NCBI GenBank assembly: GCA_043823645.1
Contig: JBDRAO010000024.1
Coordinates: 1-48,704, forward strand
DNA length: 48,704 nucleotides
DNA from: a bacterium
GTDB lineage: Bacteria; Patescibacteriota; WWE3; JBDRAO01
Reading direction: 5' to 3'
Made by a program: the position numbers and the translations under genes. Positions 12,733 through 48,704 of the stretch are shown here, in pieces. The first letter of the stretch is position 1; each line of letters starts with the position of its first letter. The notes beneath the pieces are model-generated. The model made no database searches. It was not told the DNA's origin and was given only the letters and a program-made list of their open reading frames with translations.

Positions 12733-12736
12733 TGTG

Positions 12737-13774
12737 TTAAGAAGCTTTAGCCCTTATCTCTAAGGGGGGCAATTTCTCGCCCTTAAGACTTATTTTAATA
12801 GTATCAAAATTTTCACCATCTTTCCTCACTTCCACTAAATAGTCACCGTTTTCAAGCGAGGTGGTAATTTGAAAACGGCCCAAAGCATTGCTTTTTAGGG
12901 CTCTAACAGGGTCGCCATCGGGCTCTTTAATTACAATAACAGCGCCATCTACCAGCTTGCCTTTCTTGTCGAAAACTATGCCATGCACCGTATTTGGTTT
13001 GGTTTCAAAAACAGGCTGGGGCTTTTCTGCCACTACCTTTTTTGGCGCCGGTTTGTTTTTAATACGGGGCGCGCCGGGTTCTTTTCGTACTACCACTGGC
13101 GGTTCATAAGATTGGCGCGATTCTTCCCGCTGGGTTTTTTTGGCAACCTCCTCTACCTGAAAGAAAGGCTCTTTCTTAGAAGGCGGTGAGGAGGGCCCTG
13201 CCACGGTAGACACAAAAGGGGCGGCCAACGGCGCCGCCGAGGGAGGCGGCTCGGGAGAAGTATCTTTTTTCTCCAAAGAAAAGTCTAGGGATCTAATAAA
13301 ATCTTCCCGCCTTTTTTCCAAAGGATCGCTATTCTCGTGAGACACTCTTTCCAAAACTTCGGTAAGCTCTACTTTTTTATCGTAGCGACTGGTATCTTTT
13401 GACACCACCGGCGCTTCGGCTAAAAACTCATCTAAAACTTGCATAAATTTAGGGTATTGGGGGGCCTTGCGCCACACCATTATTACCGGGGAAAAAAGCG
13501 CCTTGATAAAGCTTTTAATCCAAATGTCTAAACCCCTATCTTGAATGGGCACAAAGGCCATACCCACCCCAAGGCCTATACAAATAAACACTAAAAGCCA
13601 GCGCCAAATAAAGTAGAGGCCGGATTTGTAGGCAATAAAGGCAGAAACCGCTCCCACTGCCACATAGCCAAACTGCTTAATGGTCAGTTCCCCTATTAGC
13701 TTAAACTCCACATTCATTATGTTTTGGGGAACAGGGTGTTGTTTTGAGGTTCTGTAAGAACTGGTGTCGGGCAT
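12737..13774 (-). CDS. PrgI-family (VirB3-like) membrane protein with C-terminal carboxypeptidase-regulatory-like beta-sandwich
   Basis: 345 aa. HPVPQNIMNVEFKLIGELTIKQFGYVAVGAV plus two TM helices is PrgI-like. A Pro/Lys-rich linker follows. The C-terminus VHGIVFDKKGKLVDGAVIVIKEPDG...GDYLVEVRKDG is CarboxypepD_reg-like. Confidence 0.5.
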   Translation of the reverse strand: MPDTSSYRTSKQHPVPQNIMNVEFKLIGELTIKQFGYVAVGAVSAFIAYKSGLYFIWRWLLVFICIGLGVGMAFVPIQDRGLDIWIKSFIKALFSPVIMVWRKAPQYPKFMQVLDEFLAEAPVVSKDTSRYDKKVELTEVLERVSHENSDPLEKRREDFIRSLDFSLEKKDTSPEPPPSAAPLAAPFVSTVAGPSSPPSKKEPFFQVEEVAKKTQREESRQSYEPPVVVRKEPGAPRIKNKPAPKKVVAEKPQPVFETKPNTVHGIVFDKKGKLVDGAVIVIKEPDGDPVRALKSNALGRFQITTSLENGDYLVEVRKDGENFDTIKISLKGEKLPPLEIRAKAS

Positions 13775-22755: not shown

Positions 22756-23889
22756 GTGAAACTACTAATAGCATGTCTAATTGGTAAATTGGGAGCCGTT
22801 TTTTTAAAAATACTTGGGTTTTCGGCCTCCACCTGGCCGGGACACCTGAGTTTAAAGCTTGATCCCCACTTGGTAGAAAAGCTTGAGAGCAGGTTACCCT
22901 GTGGTTCTGTGGTAGTGAGCGGTACCAATGGTAAAACCACCACCGCCAATATGATTGCCTATGTTTTAACTAAGGCTGGTTACCAGGTAATCCACAATAA
23001 CCTTTCCGCCAATTTGCTTAACGGCATCGCTACCTCTTTAGTTTTATCCACCAAACTTACCGGTACTTATCCACATTATGGGGATAAGTCGGTGGGGGTT
23101 TTTGAAATTGACGAGGCGGTTTTCCCAAAAGCTTTGAGCCGGTTTACTCCCGAGGTGGTGGTTTTACTTAATCTCTCCCGAGATCAACTTGATCGCTATG
23201 GTGAGGTGGATCTTTTGGTTTCCAAGTGGCGTGAGGCTTTGCTGGGTTTGGAGAGGCAGGGTTCTTTTCCCAAGGTGGTTTACTGCTCGGATGATAAAAG
23301 GCTGCAAGAAGTGGTGGGGGGTTTTCCGGAGGAGCTGTCGTGCCCAGTCTTGAAACAGCCGCAGTTTTCCCAAACAAATGTCCGGTTTGCTGTTACGGTA
23401 GCTTCTTTGCTGGGAGTTTCTGCAAAAAGGGCAGAGGCTCTTTTGGCAGAATTCCGGCCCGTGTTTGGGAGGGGGGAAGCGGTCTTGTGGCACGCCAGCC
23501 GGTTTCACCTCTATTTAGCTAAGAACCCCCAAAGCTTCAATGAAAACCTAAAATTTTGGCTCAATAAAGCCGGACCAAAGACAGCTTTTTGGCTTCTTCT
23601 CAACGATAACATTCCGGATGGCAGGGATGTCTCTTGGATTTGGGATATAGACTCGGCTTTACTTTTTAAGCTACTTAGGGGCCGAGCGGTGTATATATCC
23701 GGCAGGCGAGCTTATGATATGGCCTTGCGTTTAAAGTATGCCGGTCTTGATTCTAATTTATTGGTGGTGACTCGCAAGGTAAGAGAGGCGGCCGAAAATA
23801 TTGCCGCCACTCAAAAAGAAGTGGTGGTTTTTCCCACTTACTCGGCTATGCTTGAGGTGAGAAAAGTCTTAACAGGAAAGAGAATATGA
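22756..23889 (+). CDS. murT: Mur-ligase-family protein MurT (lipid II isoglutaminyl synthase subunit)
   Basis: GTG start. VVSGTNGKTTTANM P-loop and the C-terminal DUF1727-like GRDVSWIWDID. Paired with gatD. Confidence 0.8.
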   Translation: MKLLIACLIGKLGAVFLKILGFSASTWPGHLSLKLDPHLVEKLESRLPCGSVVVSGTNGKTTTANMIAYVLTKAGYQVIHNNLSANLLNGIATSLVLSTKLTGTYPHYGDKSVGVFEIDEAVFPKALSRFTPEVVVLLNLSRDQLDRYGEVDLLVSKWREALLGLERQGSFPKVVYCSDDKRLQEVVGGFPEELSCPVLKQPQFSQTNVRFAVTVASLLGVSAKRAEALLAEFRPVFGRGEAVLWHASRFHLYLAKNPQSFNENLKFWLNKAGPKTAFWLLLNDNIPDGRDVSWIWDIDSALLFKLLRGRAVYISGRRAYDMALRLKYAGLDSNLLVVTRKVREAAENIAATQKEVVVFPTYSAMLEVRKVLTGKRI

Positions 23890-24602
23890 CAATGGTGTGG
23901 TTGTACCCCAAACATCTTAATTTGTACGGCGATAGAGGCAATATTGAATGTCTCAAGCGGCGGCTTGAGTGGCGGGGACTCCAATATAAATTGGTAGAGT
24001 TTAATGTGGGAGATTCTCTCAAAAAACTTACAGGGGCAGACCTGTTTTTTGCCGGAGGCGGGCCGGATTCATTGCAAAGGGAGGTTTCAGCCGATGCCTT
24101 TCGCCTCAAACCGGCGCTTATAAAGGCGCAAGAGCAGGGCAGGGCCGGGCTCTTTATTTGCGGCTTTTACCAGCTTTTGGGGCGTTTCTACCGCCCCGCT
24201 GAAGGAGCCGACATCCCTGGTCTTGGTATCTTTGATTGCTACACCGAACACTTCGGGGCGCGGCGAAAGCGTTGTGTGGGAAATATTGTTACCACGCCCC
24301 TTATCCCTCTTAACCCCCTTACCCCCCTTGTTGGATTTGAAAACCACGAGGGCAGAACTTACCTATGTCCCACGGCCAAACCTCTAGCCAAAGTTCAACG
24401 GGGCTTTGGCAACAATGGCCAAGACAAGACCGAGGGGATCATTAAGGGAAATTTTGTGGGGACTTACTTACACGGCCCTCTTTTACCTAAAAACCCCCAC
24501 CTGGCCGATTGGCTATTGGCAAAAGCTTTGGGCGAAAAACTACCATTCCTAGACGACAAATTGGAGTGGCAGACACATACAAATGCTCTCAAACTCAAGT
24601 AA
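23886..24602 (+). CDS. gatD: Glutamine amidotransferase GatD (CobQ-like), partner of MurT
   Basis: LNLYGDRGNIECLKRRLEWRG, catalytic-Cys context ICGFYQLLG, GFENHEGRT and the His context GTYLHGP. Confidence 0.8.
   Translation: MTMVWLYPKHLNLYGDRGNIECLKRRLEWRGLQYKLVEFNVGDSLKKLTGADLFFAGGGPDSLQREVSADAFRLKPALIKAQEQGRAGLFICGFYQLLGRFYRPAEGADIPGLGIFDCYTEHFGARRKRCVGNIVTTPLIPLNPLTPLVGFENHEGRTYLCPTAKPLAKVQRGFGNNGQDKTEGIIKGNFVGTYLHGPLLPKNPHLADWLLAKALGEKLPFLDDKLEWQTHTNALKLK
24296..24330. repeat. Rep-A copy 2 (in frame in gatD; encodes PLIPLNPLTPL)
   Basis: gccccttatccctcttaacccccttacccccctt, immediately before the conserved GFENH motif. Confidence 0.65.
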
Positions 24603-27246: not shown

Positions 27247-28881
27247 TCAGGAATTCAATCCATTTTGAGGAAAGACCCCCTGTTTTTTGAAATATTGGGC
27301 AATAAGGGCCAGCTGGGGAATATTAAGCTTTAGGGAAATAAGAATATAAACCCCAAGACCTGCCAGAGTGGTTAGGCCGGTTAAAACCAAAAGCCCCCAA
27401 ACACGAGTGGTATCCAGCACCAAAGCATCCAGCAATTTTAGCGGTAAAAAGAGGCTCACCCCCATAAAAAATGCCGCCACCCCAATACTAAACACCGGTT
27501 TTAAAAAAGCCGGCCTTTCAAATTTGTGAAGTTTCCTATCAAGCATTATTATTAGTAAGCCTGCATTGACAATAGAGGCAATAGAACAAGAAAGAGCCAA
27601 AGACCAAACTGGCAATTTTAACCCCAAAACAAACAAAACGCTCAAAAGAGAATTAATAACAATGGAGACAATGCCGGCCTTAGTGGGAGTTTTAGTGTCT
27701 CCCAGGGCGTAAAAAGCCCTTGCCAAAAGGTAGGCGCTCCCTTGAGCCACAATAGAAATGGCAAAAAAGCTCAGAGTATAGGCAGTTTGCAGGGTGGCTT
27801 CCCAATTAAATCGCGCCGCTCCAAAGACCAGCCGTGTTAGGGGAATTCTTAAAACTAAAAGCAAGACGGCAAAAGGGGCTGTTAAAAAAAGCAGTTGGTG
27901 AAAAAGCCTTTGAAAGGTAATTTTAAATTGGGTAATATTGCCGGCATCTTTGGAAAGTTTGGGAAGAGCCGCTTGGGCAATACTGGCGCCAAAAAGGCTC
28001 ACTGGCAGAACTTGCAAGTGCTGGGCAAAGTTAAAATAAATAAGAGCCGAGGCAGAAATAAATGAGGCCAAAATAATATCTACCGTGTAGTCAATTTGGG
28101 CCACCGATTGTCCCAAAAGCCGCGGTAGGGTGAGTTTGGCAATCTTTACCACCTGAGTGTTTTTAAGGTCAAGGGATATTTTGGGCCGCCAACCCAAACG
28201 AAGCGCCGGGTAAAGCTGGACTAAGAAATGAAGAAAAGTACCCAAGACCACTCCCCAGGCAGGGCCAAAAATCCCCAGGCTGGGCGTTAAAAATAAAATA
28301 CCAGCAATAATGCCTAAATTGTAAAAAATGGGAGCCAGGGCGGTGGTTAAAAAAGCCTCCATTGACTGCAAAATACCGCTTAGAAAATTGCTTAAGACGA
28401 AAAAAATCTGAGCCAGGGTGATAATAACAGTAATCTGAGCCAGCAGAGATTTTTGCGCGTCTGTAAATCCTGGAGCAATGAGACCAGCTAAAGGTTTGGC
28501 AAAAATAATTACCAAAGCGGCTGTACCAGCAAACAATAAGAGAGCCCAACTAAGGGAAACATTGGCTGTTTTCCAGGCTTTTTTATAATCTTTCTCACCC
28601 AGGAGCTTAGAAAAAACCGGTATAAAGGCGGAGGACAAGGCTCCCATAATTAAAAGCTGAAAAACCAAATCGGGAATTCTAAAGGCGGCAAAATAAACTC
28701 CCAAGACATCGTCGGAGCCAAAGCGGGCCGCCAAGGCCCTATCGCGCAAAAGACCTAAAACCTTAGAAAAAGCCACCGCTGTAATCAGGGTGGCCGCCGC
28801 GGCCGCAACACTTTGTTTTTTAGTGGAAAATTTATCTAAAATCACTCTCTCTATTAAATACCGCCCTTTCCTTTTTTTCAA
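27247..28881 (-). CDS. murJ: Lipid II flippase MurJ
   Basis: 544 aa with about 14 TM helices. The N-terminal KVLGLLRDRALAARFG and FFAISIVAQG patterns are typical of MurJ/MviN. Confidence 0.8.
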   Translation of the reverse strand: MKKRKGRYLIERVILDKFSTKKQSVAAAAATLITAVAFSKVLGLLRDRALAARFGSDDVLGVYFAAFRIPDLVFQLLIMGALSSAFIPVFSKLLGEKDYKKAWKTANVSLSWALLLFAGTAALVIIFAKPLAGLIAPGFTDAQKSLLAQITVIITLAQIFFVLSNFLSGILQSMEAFLTTALAPIFYNLGIIAGILFLTPSLGIFGPAWGVVLGTFLHFLVQLYPALRLGWRPKISLDLKNTQVVKIAKLTLPRLLGQSVAQIDYTVDIILASFISASALIYFNFAQHLQVLPVSLFGASIAQAALPKLSKDAGNITQFKITFQRLFHQLLFLTAPFAVLLLVLRIPLTRLVFGAARFNWEATLQTAYTLSFFAISIVAQGSAYLLARAFYALGDTKTPTKAGIVSIVINSLLSVLFVLGLKLPVWSLALSCSIASIVNAGLLIIMLDRKLHKFERPAFLKPVFSIGVAAFFMGVSLFLPLKLLDALVLDTTRVWGLLVLTGLTTLAGLGVYILISLKLNIPQLALIAQYFKKQGVFPQNGLNS

Positions 28882-28904: not shown

Positions 28905-29126
28905 ATGGCTCAAAAAAAATCGGCTCTCAAAAAGACTCGCCATGATGCCAAGGTGGGCGCCCAAAACAAGATCATTAAAAAGAATCTTAAAAGGCTTTTA
29001 AAAAAAGCCGTTAAAAAAGATGTCAGTCTGGCTTACAAAAAGCTGGATAAAGCGGCCAAAAGAGGCATTATCCACCAAAATAAAGCCAGTCGTTTAAAGT
29101 CTAGACTGGCAAAAAAGCTAAAATAA
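28905..29126 (+). CDS. rpsT: 30S ribosomal protein S20
   Basis: 73 aa, basic. MAQKKSALKKTRHDAKV...IHQNKASRLKSRL. Confidence 0.9.
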   Translation: MAQKKSALKKTRHDAKVGAQNKIIKKNLKRLLKKAVKKDVSLAYKKLDKAAKRGIIHQNKASRLKSRLAKKLK

Positions 29127-29132
29127 TTCCCC

Positions 29133-29660
29133 ATGCCCCAAATGAAACCGGCCATTAATTTATACGAGGAAGCTTCTCTTGAAAAGCAGGCTCCTAAAAG
29201 TAAAGCCTTAAATTGGCTGGCCACTTTTGGCAAGACTATTATTATTGGGGTTAATTTTGTGACCATTGGCGCTTTTGTATTTAGAGTGGTGGTCGATCAG
29301 AAAAGATTGGATTTAAAAGAGAAGGTGATGACGCAAGAGCGAGTCTTGCTGGCCAACCAGTCTTTTGAAAATGATTTCCGCATTATGCAGGAAAAAGTAA
29401 ACCTTTTGAAGGAATTTTCAACCCAGAGTGTCTTAACGGAAAGATTAAATCTTATAGAGCAGAGTATGCCAGAAAGTGTGGTGAGCCAAAGCTTTGATTT
29501 AGATCAAAAGACTGTGGTAGTAAAGGCAGAGTCGGCCAGTGGGACGGCCCTTTCGGTCATGGCGGCCAATCTACTGGATGGGGGCGCCCAAGATTTTATC
29601 TTAAAAGAGGCGCGGTTTAGTCCGGAAGGTTTTGCGGTGGCTTTTCAGATAACATTTTAA
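29133..29660 (+). CDS. PilN-like bitopic protein
   Basis: A short N-terminus with INLY (compare the PilN INLLP motif), one TM helix, a coiled coil, then an alpha/beta tail. The assignment rests on architecture. Confidence 0.35.
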   Translation: MPQMKPAINLYEEASLEKQAPKSKALNWLATFGKTIIIGVNFVTIGAFVFRVVVDQKRLDLKEKVMTQERVLLANQSFENDFRIMQEKVNLLKEFSTQSVLTERLNLIEQSMPESVVSQSFDLDQKTVVVKAESASGTALSVMAANLLDGGAQDFILKEARFSPEGFAVAFQITF

Positions 29661-29663
29661 ACT

Positions 29664-30239
29664 ATGTCTAATCCTTATTACTTTTATTATGGCAAATATT
29701 TACGACCCTTTGTAAGAAAGGAGCCTCAAAAAACTTATACAGTGGCAGTAATGTCACTGCTAACAGTGATGCTTTTTGGCGTCTTTGCCATTGCCCCCAC
29801 GGTTAAAAGCATTTTAAAAGCCTCCGATGAGCTAACCAGGCTTTCCGAGCTTTCTGCCAATTTGAATATTAAAATTGAAAATGTTCAAAAGGCGCGGCTT
29901 TTATATGCCCAGGCTAAACCTTTTGAAGAGGCGCTGGACAGCCAAATTTATGTCTTTGAAGGTTGGGGCCGGGCGGTGGGAGATATTACCGCTTTGGCCA
30001 ATGAGGCCTCTTTGGCGGTTGCTGTGGTAGATCCGGGGCTAATTATTAACAATGAGGGTTTTTTGCAAGTTAAGCTCTCCGGCGCCTACCTTGATATTGA
30101 GCTTTTTTTGGAAGGGCTCACCAAGAAACACCGTAATTATAGTTTAGATAAACTGGTTTTGGAAAAAAATGAGGATAATTCTAACCTAGATGAGAGTCAG
30201 GTTGAGGCTGAAGTTTTGCTAAAGGTTCTGTTCCTTTAA
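29664..30239 (+). CDS. PilO-like bitopic protein
   Basis: Same N-in/TM/coiled-coil/globular layout. Tightly coupled to the previous gene. Confidence 0.3.
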   Translation: MSNPYYFYYGKYLRPFVRKEPQKTYTVAVMSLLTVMLFGVFAIAPTVKSILKASDELTRLSELSANLNIKIENVQKARLLYAQAKPFEEALDSQIYVFEGWGRAVGDITALANEASLAVAVVDPGLIINNEGFLQVKLSGAYLDIELFLEGLTKKHRNYSLDKLVLEKNEDNSNLDESQVEAEVLLKVLFL

Positions 30240-30241
30240 GT

Positions 30242-30418
30242 ATGTCACGAGATTTTTTGCTAGTTTTAATATTAATATTTTTTACCGGTTTGGCGGTGGG
30301 TGGTATTAGCCTTATAAGGCCGAAAGATTTGGATGAGTCTTTGGTAGATTCAAATAAGGAAGTTTATCTTCCCCTGGATCCAACCCTTGACATAGACTTT
30401 ATAAAAAGTCTATACTAG
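30242..30418 (+). CDS. Small membrane protein (58 aa, below the ORF-track cutoff)
   Basis: ATG 30242 lies 2 nt after the previous stop. MSRDFLLVLILIFFTGLAVGGISLIRPKDL...IKSLY*, with one TM helix. Fills the operon gap exactly. Confidence 0.4.
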   Translation: MSRDFLLVLILIFFTGLAVGGISLIRPKDLDESLVDSNKEVYLPLDPTLDIDFIKSLY

Positions 30419-30427
30419 GTTCGTATT

Positions 30428-33163
30428 ATGAAAACCTTCCTGCTTAGGCCCTCAATTATTAAAGAAACCAAACGAACTCTGGGCGCTTTGGGCCTTTTGA
30501 CCCTCATTATTACTATTCCCATTACCACCTTGGCAGTGCTTAATACCAGAAATTATGTTACTAAACAAAAAGCGGCCGGTGAGGCTTTTTCAGATTATAG
30601 AACCTATGAGTTTGAGGCGGGGGGGCAAAAATATTTGAATTACAGTTTTTTGGAAAATGACGGGGTAACTTCTTGGGAGATGAATTGTCCCATGGGTGAC
30701 GGTGGCGTGGATTGGGGCAGTTGTACCGAAATTGCGCCCAACGATTTAAGCTGGGTGTCCGGCGCTCCCTTTTCGGGGTATCGCGCCTATGAGTTTGAGG
30801 CGGGGGGGCAAAAGCAGGTGAATTTTGGATTTTTGGAGCAGGCTGGCCTGAAGTCTTGGGAGATGAATTGTCCCTCGGGGGACAGTGGGGTTGATTTTTC
30901 CGCCTGTTCGGCTCTGGTGCCGGTGGATTTGAGTGGCCTTCCCGGAGCTCCCTTTACCAGCTACCGAGCCTATGAGTTTGAGGCCTTATCGGCAGGGGGC
31001 GAGGAACGGATCGCAGTTGTTACCTGGGGCGGACTTTCGGGAGAGCCCAATGTTTTAACCGCCAAGCCCGACGGCTCTGATCAGCAAATACTGTCCTATG
31101 TAGATGATGGGAAATTTGATAGCAACTACCTGTATGGAGGAGATGTTTGTGGGGATTATCTGTTTGTTTCTGGAGGAGCTTCGCCATCGTTGCACTCCGG
31201 TGATGTTTATAAGATTTCCTTATTGGATGGCTCTGTTACAAAGATTGTGTCTAGTGACCAGTTTGAGGGGAGTGCTTTGGGGTATGTTTCGGCTTCTCCT
31301 GATTGCTCCAAAATCTCATTTACGGTGGACACGGATAGTTTTGGCCGTGAAATTTTCATGACCACTGCCGAGGGCAGTAATGTTGTAAACATTACCCACG
31401 CCACATCCGGCTCCCAAAGTTTCCCTGTGTTTTTGAGCAGTAATGAAATTGCCTACAAAAGCAATCGGTTGGGCGGGGATGTGCTTGTAAAACAAAATGT
31501 TGATTCTGGGGCAGTCTCAACCATTGCCGACCTGTCTCCTTCGATCCTTGGTTATCTTGGTATTAACAGCGCCAGAGATAAGTTTGTGTTCTCTTTAGGG
31601 TTAACAGAAGATACCCAGGATATTTTTACTCTCAATGTTGATGGCACAAATTTGACCCAAGTTACAGCCACAGTAGAGGACGAAGAGAGGCCCAAGTTTG
31701 ATCAGGCCGGGGTAAAAATTTATTACAGAAGGCAGAGGCCAAGTAAGGCGTACAACCTTTACAGTATGAACTCCAACGGCTCAAACCAGACAGCGGTATT
31801 AACAAGCGACAGTATTGACTACATCCAAGCCACCTCCTACTTTGCAGGGTCGGGCGGTGCCACCCAAAAATACCTCAACTATGGCTTTATGAGCGCCACC
31901 GGCAATACTTCTTATGAAATGAACTGTCCCCTAGGTAGCGATGGGGTAGAGTGGGGGGAGTGCTCCTCTTTGGTACCGGTGGATTTGAGCGGAGTAACCG
32001 GAGCTCCTTTTACTGGCTACCGCGCTTACGAGTTTATGAGAGCCGGTCAGCAATATCTCAGTTACGGATTTCTTGAGGCAGGGGGGTTAACCTCGAGGGA
32101 AATGGAGTGTCCCATGGGTGCCAGTGGAGTTGACTGGGGGCAGTGCTCGGCTCTGGCGGCGGTGGATTTAACCGATATTATTCCCGCCCAGCCCAACCCT
32201 CCCTTGTGTACCATTACCGGCCCAACCAGCACGGTGGTGGGGCAGGCGGCCACCTGGAGCGCCACGGCCACAGTTCCCCTGGGCGGCGATGCCAATGTTG
32301 AGATAGATGTCAATGATCAGCGTTGGGTAGGGGGGGCTGGTCTCGAGAGAATTGCTTATTCTGATTGCGGTAATACCAACAGCACCTGCGCTGTTGAGGG
32401 GAGCTACACATTTGAGGAAGAGGGCACCCATTATGTTTTTTGTAGAGGGTATAACGACGGCCTAAGAGAGTGCCGTCCCTTTGGGCCTTATGAATACCCG
32501 GCCGATGTTGATTGCGGCCCCACAGATTATTTGACTGTTGCCGTTACCGCACCGGTCCAATATGATGGCTATTTTTGCGCCGAAAACAGTTGGGAGTGTC
32601 CTGCCCAACCCGATTGCGATACTGCCGGCAACAACATTGGTATCTGTTATTCCACCCGTGAGCAGTGCCTAACAAACTGTGTTGAGCCTGAAGGCGACTA
32701 TATCTATATCAAGTCTTCTATGCAAGGCAAGGCTTCCGGCAATTGGGATGGCCCTTGCTATTACTGGATAGACGATGCCGCTCATCCATGGAATTACCAA
32801 GCGGAGAAAGTGCCTGGACATCTTAGTGAGGCTGGAGAGGCAGTAGTTGATGTTTCTCCTTATAATCTTATTCCAGGTGTGGAATACTATTTTTCCCTTA
32901 AAGCTTACCAGCATATTCAGAAGGTGGTGTTGCTGTCTTACCAGCCGGGAATGGTGGTAGACTTTGGAGAGATGTTGGCTGGAGATGTGTATCTGCCCGA
33001 CGAGCAGGGAGCCCAGGATGGCGAGGTCAACAGCGCCGACTTTAGTAAAATTATTGAGAATTTGTGGAGCACCATAAAAGACTACTATGATTTAGACGGC
33101 AATGGAGAAATAAACTCCATTGATATGTCTTTAATTATTAGCAACTGGTTCAAGCGCGACTAG
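30428..33163 (+). CDS. Large secreted protein: novel Cys-pair repeats + PD40/TolB-like beta-propeller + Ig-like region + C-terminal dockerin
   Basis: 911 aa with an N-terminal TM/signal sequence. Five copies of a roughly 61-aa repeat (YRAYEFEAGGQK..NYGFLE..SWEMNCP.G..GVDW..CS.L.PVDLSG..GAPF). PD40-like strands (IFMTTAEGSNVVNITH; DIFTLNVDGTNLTQVT; YSMNSNGSNQTAVL). Dockerin segments DGEVNSADFS and DLDGNGEINSIDMS. Confidence 0.7.
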   Translation: MKTFLLRPSIIKETKRTLGALGLLTLIITIPITTLAVLNTRNYVTKQKAAGEAFSDYRTYEFEAGGQKYLNYSFLENDGVTSWEMNCPMGDGGVDWGSCTEIAPNDLSWVSGAPFSGYRAYEFEAGGQKQVNFGFLEQAGLKSWEMNCPSGDSGVDFSACSALVPVDLSGLPGAPFTSYRAYEFEALSAGGEERIAVVTWGGLSGEPNVLTAKPDGSDQQILSYVDDGKFDSNYLYGGDVCGDYLFVSGGASPSLHSGDVYKISLLDGSVTKIVSSDQFEGSALGYVSASPDCSKISFTVDTDSFGREIFMTTAEGSNVVNITHATSGSQSFPVFLSSNEIAYKSNRLGGDVLVKQNVDSGAVSTIADLSPSILGYLGINSARDKFVFSLGLTEDTQDIFTLNVDGTNLTQVTATVEDEERPKFDQAGVKIYYRRQRPSKAYNLYSMNSNGSNQTAVLTSDSIDYIQATSYFAGSGGATQKYLNYGFMSATGNTSYEMNCPLGSDGVEWGECSSLVPVDLSGVTGAPFTGYRAYEFMRAGQQYLSYGFLEAGGLTSREMECPMGASGVDWGQCSALAAVDLTDIIPAQPNPPLCTITGPTSTVVGQAATWSATATVPLGGDANVEIDVNDQRWVGGAGLERIAYSDCGNTNSTCAVEGSYTFEEEGTHYVFCRGYNDGLRECRPFGPYEYPADVDCGPTDYLTVAVTAPVQYDGYFCAENSWECPAQPDCDTAGNNIGICYSTREQCLTNCVEPEGDYIYIKSSMQGKASGNWDGPCYYWIDDAAHPWNYQAEKVPGHLSEAGEAVVDVSPYNLIPGVEYYFSLKAYQHIQKVVLLSYQPGMVVDFGEMLAGDVYLPDEQGAQDGEVNSADFSKIIENLWSTIKDYYDLDGNGEINSIDMSLIISNWFKRD

Positions 33164-33167
33164 TAGT

Positions 33168-33232
33168 CAATTAACAATTACGAGTTACAAATTACGAATG
33201 AATTAAAATCCTATGAATTATAATTCGTAATT
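33168..33232. repeat. Rep-D solo hairpin element
   Basis: caattaacaattacgagttacaaattacgaatga ... attcgtaatt. The left arm is about 90% identical by eye to 46307-46340 and 47438-47471. Confidence 0.7.
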
Positions 33233-33237
33233 AGATT

Positions 33238-33885
33238 GTGATGGCAAAAAACACCAAGAATATAAAAATTAAGTTTCAGTTGGAAAGTCTCCTTTCGGTC
33301 AATGCTCTTTTGGCCGTGGTAATTGCCCTGGAGCTTTTAATTGCTCTTTATCTCATTGTCTCTCAAAATTACCAACTAAAGGCTTTATACAATCGCTCTT
33401 TGGAGGGAGTGAGGAAAATATCCGAAGAGTCAACTGCCAAGGCCAAACAGGCCAGCACCTCAGCCTCTCTGCTTTTACAGGCAGACGCCAAAACCTACTT
33501 GGCTGGAGAGCCGGCTGAAGTAGAGGTAGTGCTTACGCTCGACAAGCCGGAGACAATTTCTGCCATTGAGGGCCGGCTCAAATACGATCCCAACTATATT
33601 AAGATTAACAATATTGTGACTCGTAGCCTTTTCAAAAAAGCGGCCGATAAGGACGACCCCGCCGGTGGGGTTTTCTACTTTGCCTTTTACAGCGAAGACG
33701 GCCAAAAAATAACCAACTCTTTGGGGCTAGCCACTGTTTCGTTTACGCCTCTGCGCCAGGGCGCCACGGCTTTAGAGTTTGTATTTAGTGAAGGAGCTAG
33801 CAGTAGCAGTTCCACAGTAATGCGCTATACCGACCCCACCAATCTCTTGCAAAAGGTTAATAGTGTCGATATTGTAATAGAGTAA
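33238..33885 (+). CDS. Cohesin-domain protein (membrane-anchored)
   Basis: 215 aa with an N-terminal TM helix. VEVVLTLDKPETISAIEGRLKYDPNYIKINNI...FYFAFYS...LATVSFTPLRQGATALEF fits the cohesin beta-sandwich pattern. Confidence 0.6.
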   Translation: MMAKNTKNIKIKFQLESLLSVNALLAVVIALELLIALYLIVSQNYQLKALYNRSLEGVRKISEESTAKAKQASTSASLLLQADAKTYLAGEPAEVEVVLTLDKPETISAIEGRLKYDPNYIKINNIVTRSLFKKAADKDDPAGGVFYFAFYSEDGQKITNSLGLATVSFTPLRQGATALEFVFSEGASSSSSTVMRYTDPTNLLQKVNSVDIVIE

Positions 33886-34826
33886 TGTTTAAAAAGTCTG
33901 CCTTGCCTGCCATAATTTTAACTATCCCTTTCCTGGTCGTTTTTAGCGCCAAGGCTTACGCGGCGGAAGTAACTATGTCCCTGGATCCAGCCACTGCCAC
34001 GGTGGCTAAAGATAGTACCCAGACAGTTAAGGTAATGCTTAACTCCGGCACCCAAGAAATTACCGCCGGTGATGTTTATTTGGAGTACGATTCCTCTAAA
34101 GTTCAAATAACCCAGGCAAATGTTTCCAAGGGTGAGCAGGATTACAATTATGGCGCCGGCACTTGTGATTTTAGACTCAAAGGGACGGTGGTAGATAGCT
34201 CCAAAGTGAGGTTTGGCTTTTCTTGTGAGGATGACCAGGGGTTGAACCAACCATTTACAGGATCAGTTCATGTGGGTTCGGTTTTGTTTACTGCCTTGGT
34301 AGGTTCAGGTTCAACTAACCTTACTCTTAAATTCACCCCCGGTGCCACGGCCGGAGACTGCAATGCCGCCAAAGACGGGGTTGATTATTTAACCGGAACT
34401 TCGGGGGGTACCTACACTTTCACCTCAGGGGGAGGAAACGAGACACACCTGGTATGCAATACCTCCAACCAGTGCGTTTCTGTGTCCGGAGCCGGTACCA
34501 ACGAGTGTACCGCCAACTCCGACTGCGAGGAGGACGCCCCCACCCACAACGAATGCAACACTAGCAATGTTTGTGTTAGCGTTTCTGGAGCGGGGACAAA
34601 TGAGTGTACCGCCAATTCTGACTGCGCCACAGAGGAAGAGGAGGAAGAGGAAGACGACACCGATACCACCACTACCACAACCACCACCTCAACCAGCACT
34701 TACAGCACCACTTCAAAAGGGGCCACTGGCTCAGCCGTGCCTCAGACAGCTGGCAATGTTTGGCTCACCATATTAGGAGGGTTAGGATCCTTGGGCTTGA
34801 TTTTATTGGCAGTTTTGGTATTTTAA
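33885..34826 (+). CDS. Cohesin-domain surface protein with duplicated Cys motif, acidic/Thr-rich stalk and sortase-type C-terminal signal
   Basis: Signal peptide, then TVKVMLNSGTQEITAGDVYLEYDSSKVQI (cohesin-like). Two copies of CNTSN.CVSVSGAGTNECTANSDC. EEEEEEDDTDTTTTTTTTSTS stalk. VPQTAG plus a hydrophobic tail. Confidence 0.6.
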   Translation: MFKKSALPAIILTIPFLVVFSAKAYAAEVTMSLDPATATVAKDSTQTVKVMLNSGTQEITAGDVYLEYDSSKVQITQANVSKGEQDYNYGAGTCDFRLKGTVVDSSKVRFGFSCEDDQGLNQPFTGSVHVGSVLFTALVGSGSTNLTLKFTPGATAGDCNAAKDGVDYLTGTSGGTYTFTSGGGNETHLVCNTSNQCVSVSGAGTNECTANSDCEEDAPTHNECNTSNVCVSVSGAGTNECTANSDCATEEEEEEEDDTDTTTTTTTTSTSTYSTTSKGATGSAVPQTAGNVWLTILGGLGSLGLILLAVLVF

Positions 34827-34838
34827 TATTAATACTTT

Positions 34839-35408
34839 ATGAATCTAATTAGTACGGCGCAAGCCGGCAAAAGCCTCAAAACATTTATTACCATTGGAGT
34901 TTTGGCAGTGGCCGCCCTTGGGGTAGCCAAGGGGGGGCAGTATGTTTACACCACCTATGTGGGAGCGGGAGCAGAAAGTACCCCTCAACAAGTCAAGGCA
35001 GACACCATTACTGCCAATTCAGCCGTTATTAGTTGGAATACCTCAAAGGAAAGTTTTGGCTTTGTGGAGTACGGCTCCACTCCGGAACTGGGTCTTTCGG
35101 CCCAAAGTTCCCTAAGTGAAAAAACTTTGGAACACTCAGCGGCTCTTAAAAACCTACTGCCCAACACTAAATATTATTACAAGATTGGGTCAGGGGCAGA
35201 ATCTTTTGGTCAGGGAGAGGGCGACACACCCTATTCGTTTGTGACACTAGCCTCCGGCGGCCAAAAAGTGGAAGAACCGGAAGAAGATGCCACTACGGTT
35301 ACCGAAGCCGGTTTTGATAAATATATGTACACTGCCGATCCTCTTTACGATCTCAACAAAGACGGCGAGGTTAACTCAATAGATTACGAACTTTTTAAGT
35401 CTCGGTAG
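34839..35408 (+). CDS. FN3-domain protein with C-terminal dockerin-like segment
   Basis: ITANSAVISWNTSKESFGFVEYG...LLPNTKYYYKI is FN3-like. YDLNKDGEVNSIDYELF is a single dockerin-type Ca-binding segment. Confidence 0.55.
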   Translation: MNLISTAQAGKSLKTFITIGVLAVAALGVAKGGQYVYTTYVGAGAESTPQQVKADTITANSAVISWNTSKESFGFVEYGSTPELGLSAQSSLSEKTLEHSAALKNLLPNTKYYYKIGSGAESFGQGEGDTPYSFVTLASGGQKVEEPEEDATTVTEAGFDKYMYTADPLYDLNKDGEVNSIDYELFKSR

Positions 35409-35430
35409 ACGATACCCCCCTCTCTAGGAA

Positions 35431-35484
35431 CACCCGAAGGGTGGAATTCCTTTTTTGTTGTATATGTATTCCACCCTTCGGGTG
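35431..35484. terminator. Bidirectional terminator between convergent genes
   Basis: Perfect 17-nt inverted arms cacccgaagggtggaat and attccacccttcgggtg. Each arm also folds as caccc-gaa-gggtg. The plus-strand copy is followed by tcctttttt. Confidence 0.7.
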
Positions 35485-35493
35485 TATAGCTAG

Positions 35494-36111
35494 TCAACCC
35501 CTCCTTTTGCCAATAATCAAAAGCCTTTTAGTATCCAGCCCCGGTGGAGTACAAGTCATAAGAATTACCCACGATTCATTTTTGGAAAAATACTCGCTTT
35601 GCATAAAAGGGCTCACCTCCTCGGGCTTTAGGGTAATTTTATAAATCACCTCAAAAGTGTCGCTTTCGTTTCCTCTTTCAATGGTAAAAGAGTCTCCAAA
35701 ATTCAAATGATGCAGGGTGGAAAAAATAGTGTCGTAATCCAAAGCGTCAAAGAACCAGGGCAAGACTGAGTGGCCATACAAAAAGCTAATGCCGGCCTCC
35801 CCGGGCAATACAGTTCCCTGTAAGTGCCCAATAAATCCTTTGGGGTCCAAATCAAAAATGTTGGCTTTAACTTGGGCATCTTCAATAGATAATTTAGGAA
35901 TGCTAAGGTAAAAAAAGCTTTCTGTGGCGGTGGCGGCGCTTCCCAGTACAGGGCTTTCCCGCGCCTTTAAGGGTTTAATGTTTCCGGGTAAAACCATCTG
36001 ATTGCCTTTGGAAGGCATACTTTTAAGAATGGGTAAAAACACCTGCGCTGTTAAAAGATAAGCGCCGGTAATAAAGCTCGCCAAAGCGGCCATTTTTTTA
36101 AAATATTTCAT
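35494..36111 (-). CDS. Sortase
   Basis: 205 aa with an N-terminal anchor. His context FLYGHS, catalytic VILMTCTPPG (TLxTC-like) and a downstream Arg (KRLLI). Confidence 0.75.
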   Translation of the reverse strand: MKYFKKMAALASFITGAYLLTAQVFLPILKSMPSKGNQMVLPGNIKPLKARESPVLGSAATATESFFYLSIPKLSIEDAQVKANIFDLDPKGFIGHLQGTVLPGEAGISFLYGHSVLPWFFDALDYDTIFSTLHHLNFGDSFTIERGNESDTFEVIYKITLKPEEVSPFMQSEYFSKNESWVILMTCTPPGLDTKRLLIIGKRRG

Positions 36112-36725
36112 AGCAAATTAATTAAAAGCCAGCTTTCCACCGATTCCCATGGGTCTTGGGCTAAACTTTTAAGTTTTTTTTCCAGTTCCAAAAGGCCAAC
36201 TTGCAGGCTTAAAGCCTTTTTTGGGCTCAAGGTGGCCTTTCTGGCCCCGCTGATTATTTTCTCAAGCCGAGTAAAAAGGAAAGCCAGGCCTAAAAGCAAG
36301 TTTTCACCCTCGGTTTGCATTTTTCTAAGAGCCGCCACGGCATTTTTAGCGTTTTGTTGTGATACCGCGTCCAGCAATTTGAAAATCGCCCGACTGTGGT
36401 AAACGCTAAAGTCTTTAACCACCCCGCCCTGAGCATTAACCCAGTCACCCACCTTTTTTAAAGACAAATTGTCTCCCAGGTAGCACAGCGCCAGCTCAAT
36501 GGCTGGCTTTTGTTCCACTATTTTGGTGAGCAGGTTTAGGCTGTCTTTGGGAAAATTATTAAGGACCCAAAGATTAGTTTCCCCAAAAAGAGTGTCTCCC
36601 TTGTAAAGCGTTTCTACCACCCCGTCCATTTCCTTAAAATTATCAAAGGAAGTTTTTTTAAAAGGCAAACTTTCCAAAAATAAATCAATGGGCTTTTTTT
36701 GATTGCCGTAGAGTAGGTAGATCAT
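36108..36725 (-). CDS. DNA polymerase III delta-subunit-like protein (short)
   Basis: 205 aa. The MIYLLYGNQ start and helical C-terminal half resemble HolA. Weak assignment. Confidence 0.35.
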   Translation of the reverse strand: MIYLLYGNQKKPIDLFLESLPFKKTSFDNFKEMDGVVETLYKGDTLFGETNLWVLNNFPKDSLNLLTKIVEQKPAIELALCYLGDNLSLKKVGDWVNAQGGVVKDFSVYHSRAIFKLLDAVSQQNAKNAVAALRKMQTEGENLLLGLAFLFTRLEKIISGARKATLSPKKALSLQVGLLELEKKLKSLAQDPWESVESWLLINLL

Positions 36726-37753
36726 AAATCTTTAATAAATTCCTGCACCGCGGAAAAATCGCCCGCCTTTGGTATTAACACCCAGGCGCCGTTGTAAGGC
36801 TCCGTCTCTTTGGGGTTGTAGAACAAGTTACCATCTAGCACCTGTTTACTAATTTGGGCATTGTCTGAGCTTTGGGCTAAATCATAAAAAGCCAAAGCCT
36901 CTTCCAGGCTAACATTAGTCTCAACATATTCTTTGAAAATATCGTAGAGCAGTTTAATTTTAGCCGGATTAAAAAGTGTTTTGTGAGAAAGAAGGCGGTC
37001 TTTAAAAGCCAAAATTACCTTTTGCTGGCGGGCGCTTCTGGCAAAATCGGTGCCCTCATCGCCCAGGGCGTGGCGACTGCGAACGAATTGCAGGGCTTTT
37101 TCTCCGCTTAAAGTTTGCTCTCCGGCAGAAAAGTAAACATGAGTGTAACGGTCTTCCTCGGGGTAAACATTTTCGCGACCCTCAACAGGGTATTTATAAT
37201 CGTCAAATTCGTGAGCTATATCTACTGTTAAACCGCCCACCGTGTCAACCGCTTTTACAAAGCCTTCAAAACCCACCACGGCGTAGTAGTGAATGGGTAA
37301 GTCTAAGATATTTTCGATCGTTTTTTCCAAAGCCTCAACCCCGCCCCACTGGTAAACAGCGTTAATTTTGCCGCTGTAGGGTGAGTCGGCGTAGGGTACC
37401 CAAAGATCGCGGGGAAGGGAAATTATAAACGCTTTGGTACCGGTTTCGTTAATGGAGCCTACCATTATAGTGTCGGTGAGCCAGCCGCTTTCCGTACTTT
37501 GTTTACCGCGGCGATCTAAGCCTAAAATGAGAATATTGGTTTGTCCGTTGGCGGCGGCTAGAGAGGGCGCGCCGGTAATTTTTGAAATCACGCCGGTGGC
37601 CGATTGGCGGCCGATATTTTTAACCGCCATTACGGAAATTGTAAAGAGTACCACTATTCCCAAGCCTAGTAGCGCAAGCTTTACCGTTTTTTTCTTGGGG
37701 GCGGTAGTGGTATCTTTTAGATACTTTTTGCGTCTTACAGTTTTAAATGGCAT
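36722..37753 (-). CDS. LytR-CpsA-Psr (LCP) family protein
   Basis: 343 aa with an N-terminal TM helix. TNILILGLDRRG...DTIMVGSINETGTKAFIISLPRDLWV...RSRH. Confidence 0.85.
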   Translation of the reverse strand: MPFKTVRRKKYLKDTTTAPKKKTVKLALLGLGIVVLFTISVMAVKNIGRQSATGVISKITGAPSLAAANGQTNILILGLDRRGKQSTESGWLTDTIMVGSINETGTKAFIISLPRDLWVPYADSPYSGKINAVYQWGGVEALEKTIENILDLPIHYYAVVGFEGFVKAVDTVGGLTVDIAHEFDDYKYPVEGRENVYPEEDRYTHVYFSAGEQTLSGEKALQFVRSRHALGDEGTDFARSARQQKVILAFKDRLLSHKTLFNPAKIKLLYDIFKEYVETNVSLEEALAFYDLAQSSDNAQISKQVLDGNLFYNPKETEPYNGAWVLIPKAGDFSAVQEFIKDL

Positions 37754-46309: not shown

Positions 46310-46340
46310 TTAACAATTACGAATGTACAATTACGAATTA
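46307..46340. repeat. Rep-D long arm (caattaacaattacgaatgtacaattacgaatta)
   Basis: 32 of 34 positions identical to 47438-47471. Supplies the last codons and the stop (..INS*) of the 46331-46687 gene. Confidence 0.8.
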
Positions 46341-46687
46341 ATTTTGGATGTTTTTTGAATAGCGCCAATAATTTTACAAAGTTCCTCACAATCGTTCAAG
46401 AGAGACTCTGCCGCCCTTTCGTCAACATATTGAGAATCCTTCAACAACCTTATCCAATATCTCGTTTCTCTAGTTTCTTTGTACGCTATTGACATTTTAG
46501 ATACAAAATCCTTTTTTGATTGGGCGCCAATAGCTTCCTCAACATTAGCGCCAATTCCGGTACCGCTCCGCAAAACCTGTTTGGACAGAACAAACTCTCT
46601 TTTCTTTTCACTAAGAAAACGGTACAGTTTGATGACTCTCAAAGAAAATTGGTAGCTCTTATTCAGTATTAGGTTATCTTTTTTCAT
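46331..46687 (-). CDS. Four-helix-bundle protein (23S rRNA IVS protein family)
   Basis: 118 aa. SKQVLRSGTGIGANVEEAIGAQSKKDF...ETRYW. The ATG and stop are both contributed by Rep-D arms. Confidence 0.8.
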   Translation of the reverse strand: MKKDNLILNKSYQFSLRVIKLYRFLSEKKREFVLSKQVLRSGTGIGANVEEAIGAQSKKDFVSKMSIAYKETRETRYWIRLLKDSQYVDERAAESLLNDCEELCKIIGAIQKTSKINS

Positions 46688-47516: not shown

Positions 47517-48704
47517 TCACAAACTGGCGCTAGGGGAAGCTTGAGGAGTAGGCCCGTTTGCCGGTGGGGCAGGGGAGAGTACCGGCTCTATATTGGCATT
47601 TTCTTCTAGTATTTTGAGTCTTTCTTCAATGCGGTCAAGCCTTTCGGTGGTGGCTTTTTCAAACTCTCTAAAGGTATCATTGAGCTCCAAAAGTTGTAGG
47701 TGTTCCTCTTGCACCGCCTTCACCAACAAGGTGGCAAACCTGGAATAATTTATCCCCATGTACCCATCAGATTTATTGGTATATACAATTCCCGGGAATA
47801 TCTCTTGCACTTCTTGAGCTATTAGTCCTATGTCTCTTTTTCCGGTACTGTCGTTAATCCAGTGGAAGGAATATGGCTTGAGTTTAAGTATCCCCTCTAA
47901 AGTACCCTCCAGAGGCTCTAGACTATTCTTGACACGAAGATCAGAGGTAGAGGTAGTTAAATCCCCATCATCTTCAATATACAGATCCACTGGAGAAGAA
48001 GCCCCACTCCCCACTATCAGTCTTATATTACCGGCTACCTCTAATTTTTGATTTGGGCCCGTTGTCCCGATGCCGACGTTGCCCGCACTTGACATAAACA
48101 TATAAGTAGAACCACCGGCTTGGAAAGCCAAATTCTTACCGGCTCCACTGCCAAAATAAGCTTCACCTAGTGTCCCGTTATATCCAAATACCGCTCTACC
48201 TTGAGTAATTCTTATTAAATTACTATCAGAGACAAGACCAGCTTCATTAAGCGATATATTTCCATTAACTTCCAATTTATAGGTTGGATTCGTCGTCCCG
48301 ATGCCGACGTTGCCGGTTGTTGTAATCCTCATTTTCTCCGAAGAACCTGGACTAAACAAAATACTACCCGAATTGTTAGAATGTGCTCGCAGATCAACAT
48401 CGACTCCACTTAGAAATAAACCATTCGAAGTATACGAAGAAGCAATCACACCGCCCCCACTTGGTACTACCAGTTGACCAAGATAGGAGATATTAGTAGT
48501 TGTGCCTCCCGAATTGACAAATGAGGCAGTAGCAGGTTGACCGCTACTTTGGTTTTGTCTCACAGTCAAGATTGGATTCGAGCTTGAACCAATGACGTGC
48601 AGTACCGAATCTGGTCCCGTCGTTCCGATGCCGACGTTGCCTGAAATTATCATCCCTCCCGATGGTCCCGCTATTCCCGAATATGTTCCCGCTGATATGG
48701 CTCC
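47517..48704 (-). CDS. Tail-fibre-like repeat protein with C-terminal S74 intramolecular-chaperone domain (5' end beyond the window)
   Basis: The frame stays open to base 48704. GNVGIGTT(G/N)P repeats (DNA motif cccgatgccgacgttgcc x3). C-terminal DLRVKNS...LKPYSFHW...DIGLIAQEVQEIFP...GINYS is typical of the endosialidase-chaperone (peptidase S74) domain, followed by a coiled coil. Confidence 0.7.
   Translation of the reverse strand, partial: GAISAGTYSGIAGPSGGMIISGNVGIGTTGPDSVLHVIGSSSNPILTVRQNQSSGQPATASFVNSGGTTTNISYLGQLVVPSGGGVIASSYTSNGLFLSGVDVDLRAHSNNSGSILFSPGSSEKMRITTTGNVGIGTTNPTYKLEVNGNISLNEAGLVSDSNLIRITQGRAVFGYNGTLGEAYFGSGAGKNLAFQAGGSTYMFMSSAGNVGIGTTGPNQKLEVAGNIRLIVGSGASSPVDLYIEDDGDLTTSTSDLRVKNSLEPLEGTLEGILKLKPYSFHWINDSTGKRDIGLIAQEVQEIFPGIVYTNKSDGYMGINYSRFATLLVKAVQEEHLQLLELNDTFREFEKATTERLDRIEERLKILEENANIEPVLSPAPPANGPTPQASPSASL

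Follow-up and report, generated by a model that had tools for sequence, protein, structure and literature searches.

Patescibacteria are mostly uncultured bacteria, many of which are attached to other cells, and their means of attachment are largely unknown. What might a group of cohesin and dockerin proteins do beside a sortase in such an organism? The question is raised by contig JBDRAO010000024.1 of a WWE3-type Patescibacterium, a stretch of 48,704 nt (here called the window). The genome is seen only through these 48.7 kb. Four consecutive genes on the + strand, for proteins of 911, 215, 313 and 189 amino acids (aa), meet a convergent gene on the − strand for a sortase of 205 aa; all five were found where the original prediction, made from the DNA letters alone, had placed them. 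That prediction read the block as a non-cellulosomal cohesin–dockerin scaffold. The analysis described here supports this reading through the individual parts and through comparative genomics, and adds to it an X-module–dockerin (X-Doc) dyad, the swapping of cargo between relatives and the replacement of a conserved sortase substrate. The block probably represents a minimal, non-enzymatic cohesin–dockerin surface display system. Profile searches had been proposed as a check, and cohesin, dockerin, fibronectin type III (FN3) and sortase domains were all recovered, by profiles or by structure.

The cargo protein and its X-module–dockerin dyad

The first gene of the block (30428–33163, +) encodes the 911-aa cargo protein. 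An N-terminal hydrophobic anchor or signal is followed by repeats, a propeller, a Cys-rich immunoglobulin (Ig)-like region, an X-module and a dockerin. Pfam Dockerin_1 (PF00404) matches aa 863–904 with 27.1 bits against a gathering score of 22.9, and the orthologues score 24.6 and 23.5 bits, also above threshold. Two dockerin segments are modelled, with helices at positions 119–127 and 147–155 of a 161-aa C-terminal fragment, and the second calcium-loop sequence, DLDGNGEINSID, is canonical. The two-segment dockerin previously assigned to this C-terminus is thus recovered both by Pfam and in the modelled helix and loop segments.

The fold of this whole C-terminal region was modelled from its relatives. 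An exhaustive HMMER search with the last 161 residues (aa 751–911; 32678–33160, +) returned 37 representative proteins, 20 of which were aligned with the query for AlphaFold2 (a 21-sequence alignment). The model, with a predicted local distance difference test score (pLDDT) of 89.9 and a predicted template modelling score (pTM) of 0.84, is a seven-strand beta-sandwich packed on a two-helix, two-loop dockerin. In Foldseek, the top 10 matches in the PDB are all X-Doc chains of type II cohesin–X-dockerin complexes, with template modelling (TM) scores of 0.64–0.70. The best is 4u3s_B (E = 4e-9, TM 0.70/0.72, root-mean-square deviation 3.3 Å); 5m0y_B and 2b59_B are also matched, and the alignments cover the whole fragment over about 170 columns. 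As modelled, the last 161 residues of the cargo protein form an X-Doc dyad. Cellulosomes use such a dyad to attach a large protein to a cohesin on the cell surface. The scaffold reading is strengthened because the dockerin belongs to this form, the one used for surface anchoring.

The region ahead of the dyad is predicted to hold the functional cargo. A TolB-like beta-propeller is suggested by NCBIfam TolB and Dpp5 matches with E values of ~1e-9, far below the cut-offs of these models. It is flanked by pairs of a ~61-aa repeat, at aa 57–178 (30596–30961) and aa 476–592 (31853–32203). The four copies start at aa 57, 118, 476 and 531, contain two Cys each and share the consensus YRAYEFEAGGQKxLNYGF...SWEMNCPxGxxGVDWGxCSxLxPVDLSGxxGAPF. 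No match to them was found in Pfam or among PDB sequences; they could form additional blades of the propeller or a binding module of their own. PDB sequence searches with the 911-aa protein and both cohesin proteins, by single sequence and by family profile, gave nothing useful.

Two cohesins, a putative sorting signal and a half-dockerin

The 215-aa protein (33238–33885, +) carries a cohesin at aa 89–194, where Pfam Cohesin (PF00963) scores 30.2 bits against a gathering score of 24.1. Its orthologue in L001, an ENA metagenome contig and the closest relative locus, scores 28.5 bits, and the proteins P0004–P0006 carry a precomputed Pfam Cohesin annotation; for P0004, no contig matched in an exact-sequence look-up. 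A hydrophobic stretch at aa ~22–42, read from the sequence, has no AxA cleavage site and suggests an N-terminal membrane anchor. Both the cohesin and the anchor had been proposed for this protein; the former is above the Pfam threshold and the latter is consistent with the uncleaved hydrophobic stretch.

The 313-aa protein (33885–34826, +) is the putative anchoring scaffold. The second cohesin claimed for it, at aa ~27–185, is supported not by its own Pfam score but because an orthologue of ~60% identity, P0003, passes Pfam Cohesin (25.5 bits against 24.1), because its AlphaFold2 model is a beta-sandwich (pLDDT ~78 over aa 30–155) and because the top 15 PDB matches of this model in Foldseek are all cohesins, the best being 6kgf_A (E = 1.3e-6, target TM-score 0.65). 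When the family is aligned with that of the 215-aa protein by hhalign, the whole domain falls in register, as a weak match (E = 0.12). The target TM-scores of the model, which is of moderate confidence, are 0.65 for type I cohesins, 0.47 for the type III cohesin of ScaE and 0.41 for type II.

The remaining features of the 313-aa protein would suit an exported, stalked surface protein. A Sec signal peptide, read from the sequence, has its cleavage site between ..AKAYA and AE. The cohesin is followed by two ~33-aa four-Cys repeats (aa 187–250; 34443–34634) with the consensus THxECNTSNxCVSVSGAGTNECTxNSDC, and then by an acidic and Thr-rich stretch. Extra, more divergent Cys-rich units are found in the orthologues P0002, P0003 and L046, and a similar Cys unit in the sorted cohesin protein of L030, a locus from a further genome of the group (L030:10270–11130). 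The sorting signal (34737–34823, +) reads VPQTAG-NVWLTILGGLGSLGLILLAVLVF and ends in 23 hydrophobic residues; the orthologues have VPYTAS, IPQTAG or VPQTAG.

The last + strand gene of the block (34839–35408, +) encodes the 189-aa FN3 protein, which consists of an N-terminal hydrophobic segment, an FN3 domain at aa ~47–134, an acidic linker and a single dockerin segment at aa 163–187. Pfam Pur_ac_phosph_N (40.4 bits) and fn3 (25.3 bits) are both above threshold. A dockerin hidden Markov model (HMM) constructed solely from distant X-Doc relatives matches this protein at HMM positions 23–47 of 58, with E = 1e-6 among 3394 open reading frames (ORFs). Because the match is to one segment, the tail is a genuine but single-segment 'half' dockerin: the dockerin-like end noticed earlier is real as one segment, and a full two-segment, above-threshold dockerin is not present. 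The segment is kept in the L001 orthologue and absent from the FN3 homologue of L030. A regular-expression scan of all window ORFs detected only three dockerin loops, those of this block, and only one sorting-signal-like C-terminus.

The sortase and its usual partner

The sortase gene (35494–36111, −) is convergent with the cassette. Its product matches Pfam Sortase (PF04203) with 50.3 bits against a gathering score of 26.6 and TIGR01076 with 47.9 bits, above cut-off. An N-terminal membrane anchor is present, and the catalytic His (LYGHS), Cys (LMTCT) and Arg (TKRLL) are in place and invariant between the window and L001. With both profiles above their cut-offs and the catalytic residues present, the assignment as a sortase stands. 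By sequence, the enzyme is closest to class C, yet fits no class-specific model: all the NCBIfam models for classes A–F and GN fall far short of their cut-offs, the highest score being that of class C (54 bits; cut-off 160). Several chains named class C sortase are among its best PDB relatives (E down to 9e-12).

The setting of this sortase was established by a scan of one genome per GTDB species, which yielded 43 loci. All are from Patescibacteria, many are labelled candidate division WWE3, and the complete genomes CP006914 and MEWB01000001 are included. Nearly all show the order pgk-tpiA-LCP-(holA)-sortase, facing genes for a sorted protein, a ~60-aa protein, a PilO-like protein, a PilN-like protein and rpsT. 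Family HMMs detect the sorted protein in 41 of the 43 loci, the PilO-like and the small protein in 39 each and the PilN-like protein in 37; most of the gaps are explained by contigs that stop short.

The usual sorted protein has 140–210 aa (L003–L044, e.g. L033:10438–10938 and L028:10539–11075) and matches no Pfam family. Its hydrophobic N-terminus, KGFKTFxLTLxISL, is followed by an SxFxEL...VLAG motif and an acidic low-complexity middle. The C-terminus consists of ..QSTVP[D/E]TG, a membrane segment and a conserved NPRKxALxxFEK tail. If anchored at both ends, the protein could tether the membrane to the wall. Descent of the FN3 protein from it was considered and rejected, the N-terminal similarity having E = 24 for the window protein and a marginal E = 0.09 for that of L030.

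This sorted protein is absent at the locus in the window, in L001/L002 and in L030, the three cohesin-bearing locus types. Sequence comparison indicates that the cohesin cassette replaces it in the window clade and, independently, in L030. Because the sortase orthologues in 41 of 43 loci face substrates that end in VP[D/E]TG, VPQTAG is a plausible cognate signal. The sorting signal that had been matched to the neighbouring sortase is therefore retained in its motif and hydrophobic end, and as a plausible partner by this kinship, and lacks the charged tail. The sortase, the PilN/PilO-like genes and the S20 gene are ancestral neighbours, shared by ~40 WWE3-like genomes and not recruited for the cassette.

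Conserved connectors and exchanged cargo

Related genomes preserve the block as a unit. In L001 the gene order from rpsT to pgk is identical to that of the window. The order of X-Doc cargo, transmembrane cohesin, sorted cohesin, FN3 protein and sortase is kept in L001/L002 and partly in L046. Since the same gene order recurs in these loci, the block is not a chance co-occurrence, and the conservation of five genes that had been suggested as a check is observed.

The cargo behaves differently from its connectors. The 825-aa counterpart in L001 is 60% identical to the 911-aa protein over the first 50 residues and 63% over the last 161, while the ~600–700 residues between them have no BLASTP similarity (best E = 1.0). 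The middle of the L001 protein looks like tandem modules of the carbohydrate-binding module (CBM) type, a weak resemblance (CBM_4_9, E = 0.029, below threshold), and contains neither the TolB-like propeller nor the 61-aa repeats. The protein P0008 has the same ends as the 911-aa protein with CBM-like cargo, and the fragment L046 repeats the pattern. The connectors thus appear to be kept and the cargo exchanged between relatives, which is what a plug-in display system under diversifying pressure would be expected to show. More distant X-Doc relatives contain FG-GAP, SdrD_B, fn3 or InlB-repeat domains, with no glycoside hydrolase among them, and a catalytic domain is absent from all 10 X-Doc relatives scanned.

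Some relatives combine both halves of the system. In each of P0009, P0010 and P0021, a single chain carries a cohesin, an X-Doc and a membrane anchor at its N-terminus; P0009 adds five FG-GAP repeats. Proteins of this kind could in principle chain head to tail or bridge scaffolds.

An independent and larger cohesin/dockerin/FN3/PKD cassette lies beside the orthologous sortase of L030 (L030:7666–14220). Its cohesin protein has 286 aa and comprises a signal peptide, a cohesin (Pfam, 28.5 bits), an acidic linker, the Cys repeat, a membrane segment and a ..SFEK tail. The other members are an FN3 protein, a PKD protein that ends in VFDTG with a transmembrane segment and tail, a Cys-rich protein, a protein with a weak cohesin-family match and a sub-threshold dockerin, an X-Doc protein and an FN3-PKD protein. 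Two of the cassette proteins have sorting-like ends with the conserved ..FEK tail. Neither PilN/PilO genes nor rpsT are present at this locus; because the L030 cassette stands without PilN/PilO, these genes are not required for a cassette. Judged from gene content and order, cohesin–dockerin sets have settled beside this sortase at least twice. A mobile-element origin of the window cassette was considered and gained no support: its G+C content is level with that of the flanks, and no integrase or tRNA gene lies nearby.

A proposed mechanism of surface display

The general mechanism envisaged is as follows. (i) The 313-aa protein would be exported by Sec and cleaved between AYA and AE. (ii) The sortase would cleave VPQTAG and join this cohesin scaffold to peptidoglycan. 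(iii) A stalk made of two four-Cys knots plus a linker rich in Thr and Glu would then carry the cohesin. (iv) The X-Doc of the exported 911-aa protein would bind one of the two cohesins in a calcium-dependent manner. (v) Docking would hang the propeller/repeat 'business end' outside the wall. (vi) The membrane-anchored 215-aa cohesin and the half-dockerin FN3 protein may constitute a further pair, weaker or auxiliary in role, or serve as a staging site. The displayed cargo would be a binding module (adhesin), exchanged between strains while the connectors stay fixed. A role in the attachment of an episymbiont to its host, as the original prediction proposed, may be supposed. Sortase anchoring needs a Gram-positive-type peptidoglycan wall; such a wall is suggested by the window genes for MurT/GatD (22756–24602, +), MurJ (27247–28881, −) and an LCP transferase (36722–37753, −), which lie near dnaA.

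Several observations weigh against the display system. The 313-aa protein has no Pfam Cohesin match of its own, nor has its orthologue P0002, and confidence in its model is moderate (mean pLDDT 64). By type, the two partners may not fit, as the modelled cohesin of the 313-aa protein best matches type I and the dockerin dyad looks like type II. The first calcium loop of the dyad (GDV...QDGEVNSAD) contains a ~9-residue insertion relative to family members, and Dockerin_1 scores only 18.4 bits in the FN3 protein, below the threshold of 22.9, and covers the second dockerin segment only. The sorting signal has T-A-G in place of T-G. It lacks a positively charged tail in the window protein and in every orthologue, and it lacks the NPRKxALxxFEK tail typical of the usual WWE3 substrate. 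The sortase is also kept in genomes without cohesins; because of this conservation it is not dedicated to the cassette. The cassette is rare: scans of JGI metagenomes with the X-Doc alignment and with the alignment of the 313-aa family found no relatives. Finally, the scan for glycoside hydrolases covers 48.7 kb, and the rest of the genome may hold dockerin-bearing enzymes.

Alternative explanations

One alternative is that no binding takes place between the cohesin-like and the dockerin-like domains. Each protein would then act independently at the wall or membrane surface, with the beta-sandwiches and EF-hand loops as generic adhesin parts and the sortase adjacent only through synteny. The order of the genes for sortase, S20, holA, LCP, triose-phosphate isomerase (TIM) and phosphoglycerate kinase (PGK) is fixed in ~40 genomes despite their unrelated functions, so adjacency in such small genomes is weak functional evidence. 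Moreover, no demonstrated partner is known for most non-cellulosomal cohesin and dockerin modules. Set against this, cohesins and dockerins lie within 5 kb of each other in three or four independent instances and once more in L030, and the X-Doc remains 63% identical while its cargo is replaced. The dockerin segment of the FN3 protein accompanies the cohesins in the window and L001 and is missing from the sortase-adjacent homologue of L030, despite the cohesins there. Absence of binding is considered unlikely.

In a second alternative, the locus anchors a small system for polysaccharide degradation that resembles a cellulosome; dockerin-bearing enzymes encoded elsewhere would dock on it, and the 911-aa protein would be one client among several. 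The combination of cohesin, X-Doc and sorted scaffold is indeed a cellulosome anchoring design. The cargo of the L001 825-aa protein and of P0008 resembles tandem CBMs, with the same sub-threshold weakness noted above, and dockerin-like and 'cellulosome anchoring' proteins have been noted in candidate phylum SR1 (PMC3812714). The window ORFs scanned include no glycoside hydrolase, so that the earlier claim of their absence holds for these ORFs, and none of the 10 X-Doc relatives scanned (0/10) has a catalytic domain. There are two cohesins only, one per protein; because both sit on single-cohesin proteins, there is no multi-enzyme scaffoldin in the window. WWE3 genomes are also small, at ~0.9 Mb (L028, L033). 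Taken together, a degradative role seems improbable.

The two remaining alternatives concern the genes upstream of the cassette. The PilN-like gene (29133–29660, +) and the PilO-like gene (29664–30239, +) are followed directly by an ORF for a 58-aa small membrane protein (30242–30418, +), which the original prediction had missed. The PilN-like protein of the window has no Pfam match; its L001 orthologue passes Pfam PilN (23.6 bits against 22.8). The PilO-like protein scores 15.5 bits for Pfam PilO, below the gathering score, and the L028 orthologue 28.6 bits, above it. The PilO-like family profile matches Myxococcus PilO (3jc8) with E = 6e-7, and the PilN-like family profile has no PDB match. 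The 58-aa ORF contains one hydrophobic segment and ends in ..LDIDFIKSLY, a family end that reads ..IDIEFLxxxxPAYE in relatives; it has no Pfam match. The window contains no other type IV pilus gene (PilM, PilB, PilC, PilT). A type IV pilin-like nature of the sorted and FN3 proteins, prompted by the 'KGFKTF' start beside PilN/PilO, was considered and rejected: the Gly is not invariant, Glu5 is absent and there is no Pfam N_methyl match. Both the PilN-like and the PilO-like gene are ancestral neighbours, the former probably outside the cohesin system.

In the broader of these two alternatives, the WWE3 locus as a whole is an envelope module, in which a PilN/PilO-type platform and the sortase tether or build a surface structure. 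The cohesin cassettes of the window clade and L030 would be lineage-specific replacements that turn it into a plug-in adhesin socket. Such a module, of PilN-like, PilO-like and ~60-aa membrane proteins, a doubly anchored VP[D/E]TG protein and a class-C-like sortase, may be undescribed; it is as improbable as the degradative role. Least probable is the narrower version, in which the cassette serves as accessory to an envelope machine linked to PilN/PilO and the PilN-like, PilO-like and 58-aa proteins form a platform that helps the sortase to assemble or position sorted proteins: the PilN-like, PilO-like, small transmembrane and sorted protein genes and the convergent sortase are contiguous in 37–41 of 43 loci, the window genes are co-directional with gaps of 2–9 nt and the window has no further type IV pilus gene, but the L030 cohesin/sortase cassette and the sorted protein of L009 do without PilN/PilO, the sorted protein has no prepilin signal at its N-terminus, and the flanking housekeeping genes are equally fixed in position, so that synteny alone is no proof of cooperation with the sortase.

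Relation to known systems

Cohesin–dockerin display from the cell wall has well-studied precedents. The closest analogue of the proposed display system appears to be ScaE of Ruminococcus flavefaciens with the X-Doc of CttA or ScaB. ScaE has one cohesin and is covalently attached to the wall by sortase via LPXTG; its partners are the X-Docs of ScaB and CttA, the latter an adhesin with two CBMs and an X-Doc (PMC5301203). The window likewise combines a single-cohesin scaffold that bears a C-terminal signal of LPXTG type, here predicted, with a non-enzymatic protein that ends in an X-Doc; the CBM-like cargo of L001 and P0008 recalls CttA especially. The systems differ in that the organism here is a Patescibacterium and not a Firmicute, that no enzyme-bearing scaffoldin of ScaA/ScaB type is seen and that VPQTAG has no charged tail. 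The window X-Doc resembles the type II dyads of Acetivibrio and C. thermocellum, and the type III dyad of R. flavefaciens, with its three insertions, is not among its top matches. The window also has two additional parts, the cohesin with a membrane anchor and the FN3 protein with its half-dockerin. Anchoring of scaffoldins by sortase is considered a trait of Ruminococcus (PMC11557425).

The type II anchoring of Clostridium thermocellum and Acetivibrio cellulolyticus, in which the X-Doc of CipA or ScaA pairs with cohesins of SdbA, OlpB or ScaB, is matched by the full-length superposition of the C-terminal 161 aa. In contrast to the window, these anchors use SLH domains and not a sortase. The X-Doc identity is only 12–18%, the 911-aa cargo is no scaffoldin, and the modelled window cohesin is nearer to type I. 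Another comparison is with dedicated sortase–substrate pairs, such as the marine class GN sortase with its single target. The WWE3-like sortase similarly faces one small substrate gene in 41 of 43 loci. Unlike those pairs, the window sortase scores 12.4 bits against a class GN cut-off of 158, and the substrate family is unrelated.

Cohesin and dockerin modules reportedly occur outside cellulosomes in many bacteria and archaea, as Peer et al. are said to have described in 2009. Among Patescibacteria, the epibiotic Saccharibacterium Southlakia epibionticum has an essential envelope protein with a dockerin domain (PMC10633639). One dockerin-like and one 'cellulosome anchoring' protein have been reported for SR1 genomes, and a sortase with predicted sorted proteins for WWE3 (PMC3812714). 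These earlier reports are single-domain annotations, whereas the window holds cohesins, X-Doc, sorting signal and sortase in one compact locus with comparative support. A literature search did not find a cohesin–X-Doc–sortase locus described in WWE3. The design is already known, and what is new is its occurrence in the WWE3 lineage. Since Ruminococcus already shows the design and NCBI names most of the domains, the gain lies in context and testability rather than in principle.

The locus is a compact and testable candidate for attachment, in which a socket anchored in the wall would receive a binding protein that bears the plug, and natural variants differ in the binding part only. If the proposed binding is true, connectors known from cellulosomes have been put to general use for the display of adhesins, in a very distant lineage with tiny genomes. 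The exchangeable cargo would then be a handle for predicting host or substrate specificity, and the pair itself a small orthogonal cohesin–X-dockerin module for protein engineering.

Organization of the locus and its surroundings

The genes from rpsT (S20; 28905–29126, +) through the PilN-like, PilO-like, 58-aa, 911-aa, 215-aa and 313-aa genes to the 189-aa gene form one tightly packed run on the + strand. Intergenic gaps are 2–12 nt, except for 74 nt ahead of the 215-aa gene. A promoter-like TTGACA-18-TATACT sequence at 30387–30416 (+), an 11/12 sigma-70-like match by consensus only, lies within the 58-aa ORF and ends 11 nt upstream of the ATG start codon of the 911-aa gene. A genuine promoter here would allow the cassette to be transcribed separately, as an almost leaderless mRNA. 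A terminator-like hairpin, likewise a consensus match only, is found 3' of the FN3 gene. Beyond the sortase lie a holA-like gene, the LCP transferase gene, tpiA and pgk. NCBI names four of the five block proteins ('dockerin type I domain-containing', 'cohesin domain-containing', 'fibronectin type III domain-containing' and 'sortase'); the 313-aa, PilN-like, PilO-like and 58-aa proteins are annotated as hypothetical. The proteins of this genome are filed at NCBI as MFH18960xx, with locus tags ABH814_.

The surroundings are chromosomal, with genes for dnaA, MurT/GatD, MurJ, an O-antigen-ligase-like protein, a solute-binding protein, GroEL, MetRS, TsaD, LepA and RmuC. A type IV secretion-like cluster of VirB4/PrgI type (9277–13774, −) includes a VirB4/TraG P-loop ATPase (10172–12055) and a PrgI-family protein fused to a CarboxypepD_reg domain (12737–13774, −), and is flanked by ORFs without a family match. 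At the start of the contig, positions 1–70 (+) match the Rfam DUF3800-II RNA with 61.3 bits against a gathering score of 43.2, the 5' end being lost at the contig edge. Near the opposite end lie genes for a 23S rRNA intervening-sequence protein, a bAvd-like four-helix bundle (46331–46687, −), and for a protein with a Peptidase_S74 (endosialidase chaperone) domain (47517–48653, −). These two proteins may mark a phage-tail-fibre-like or diversity-generating context at this end of the contig.

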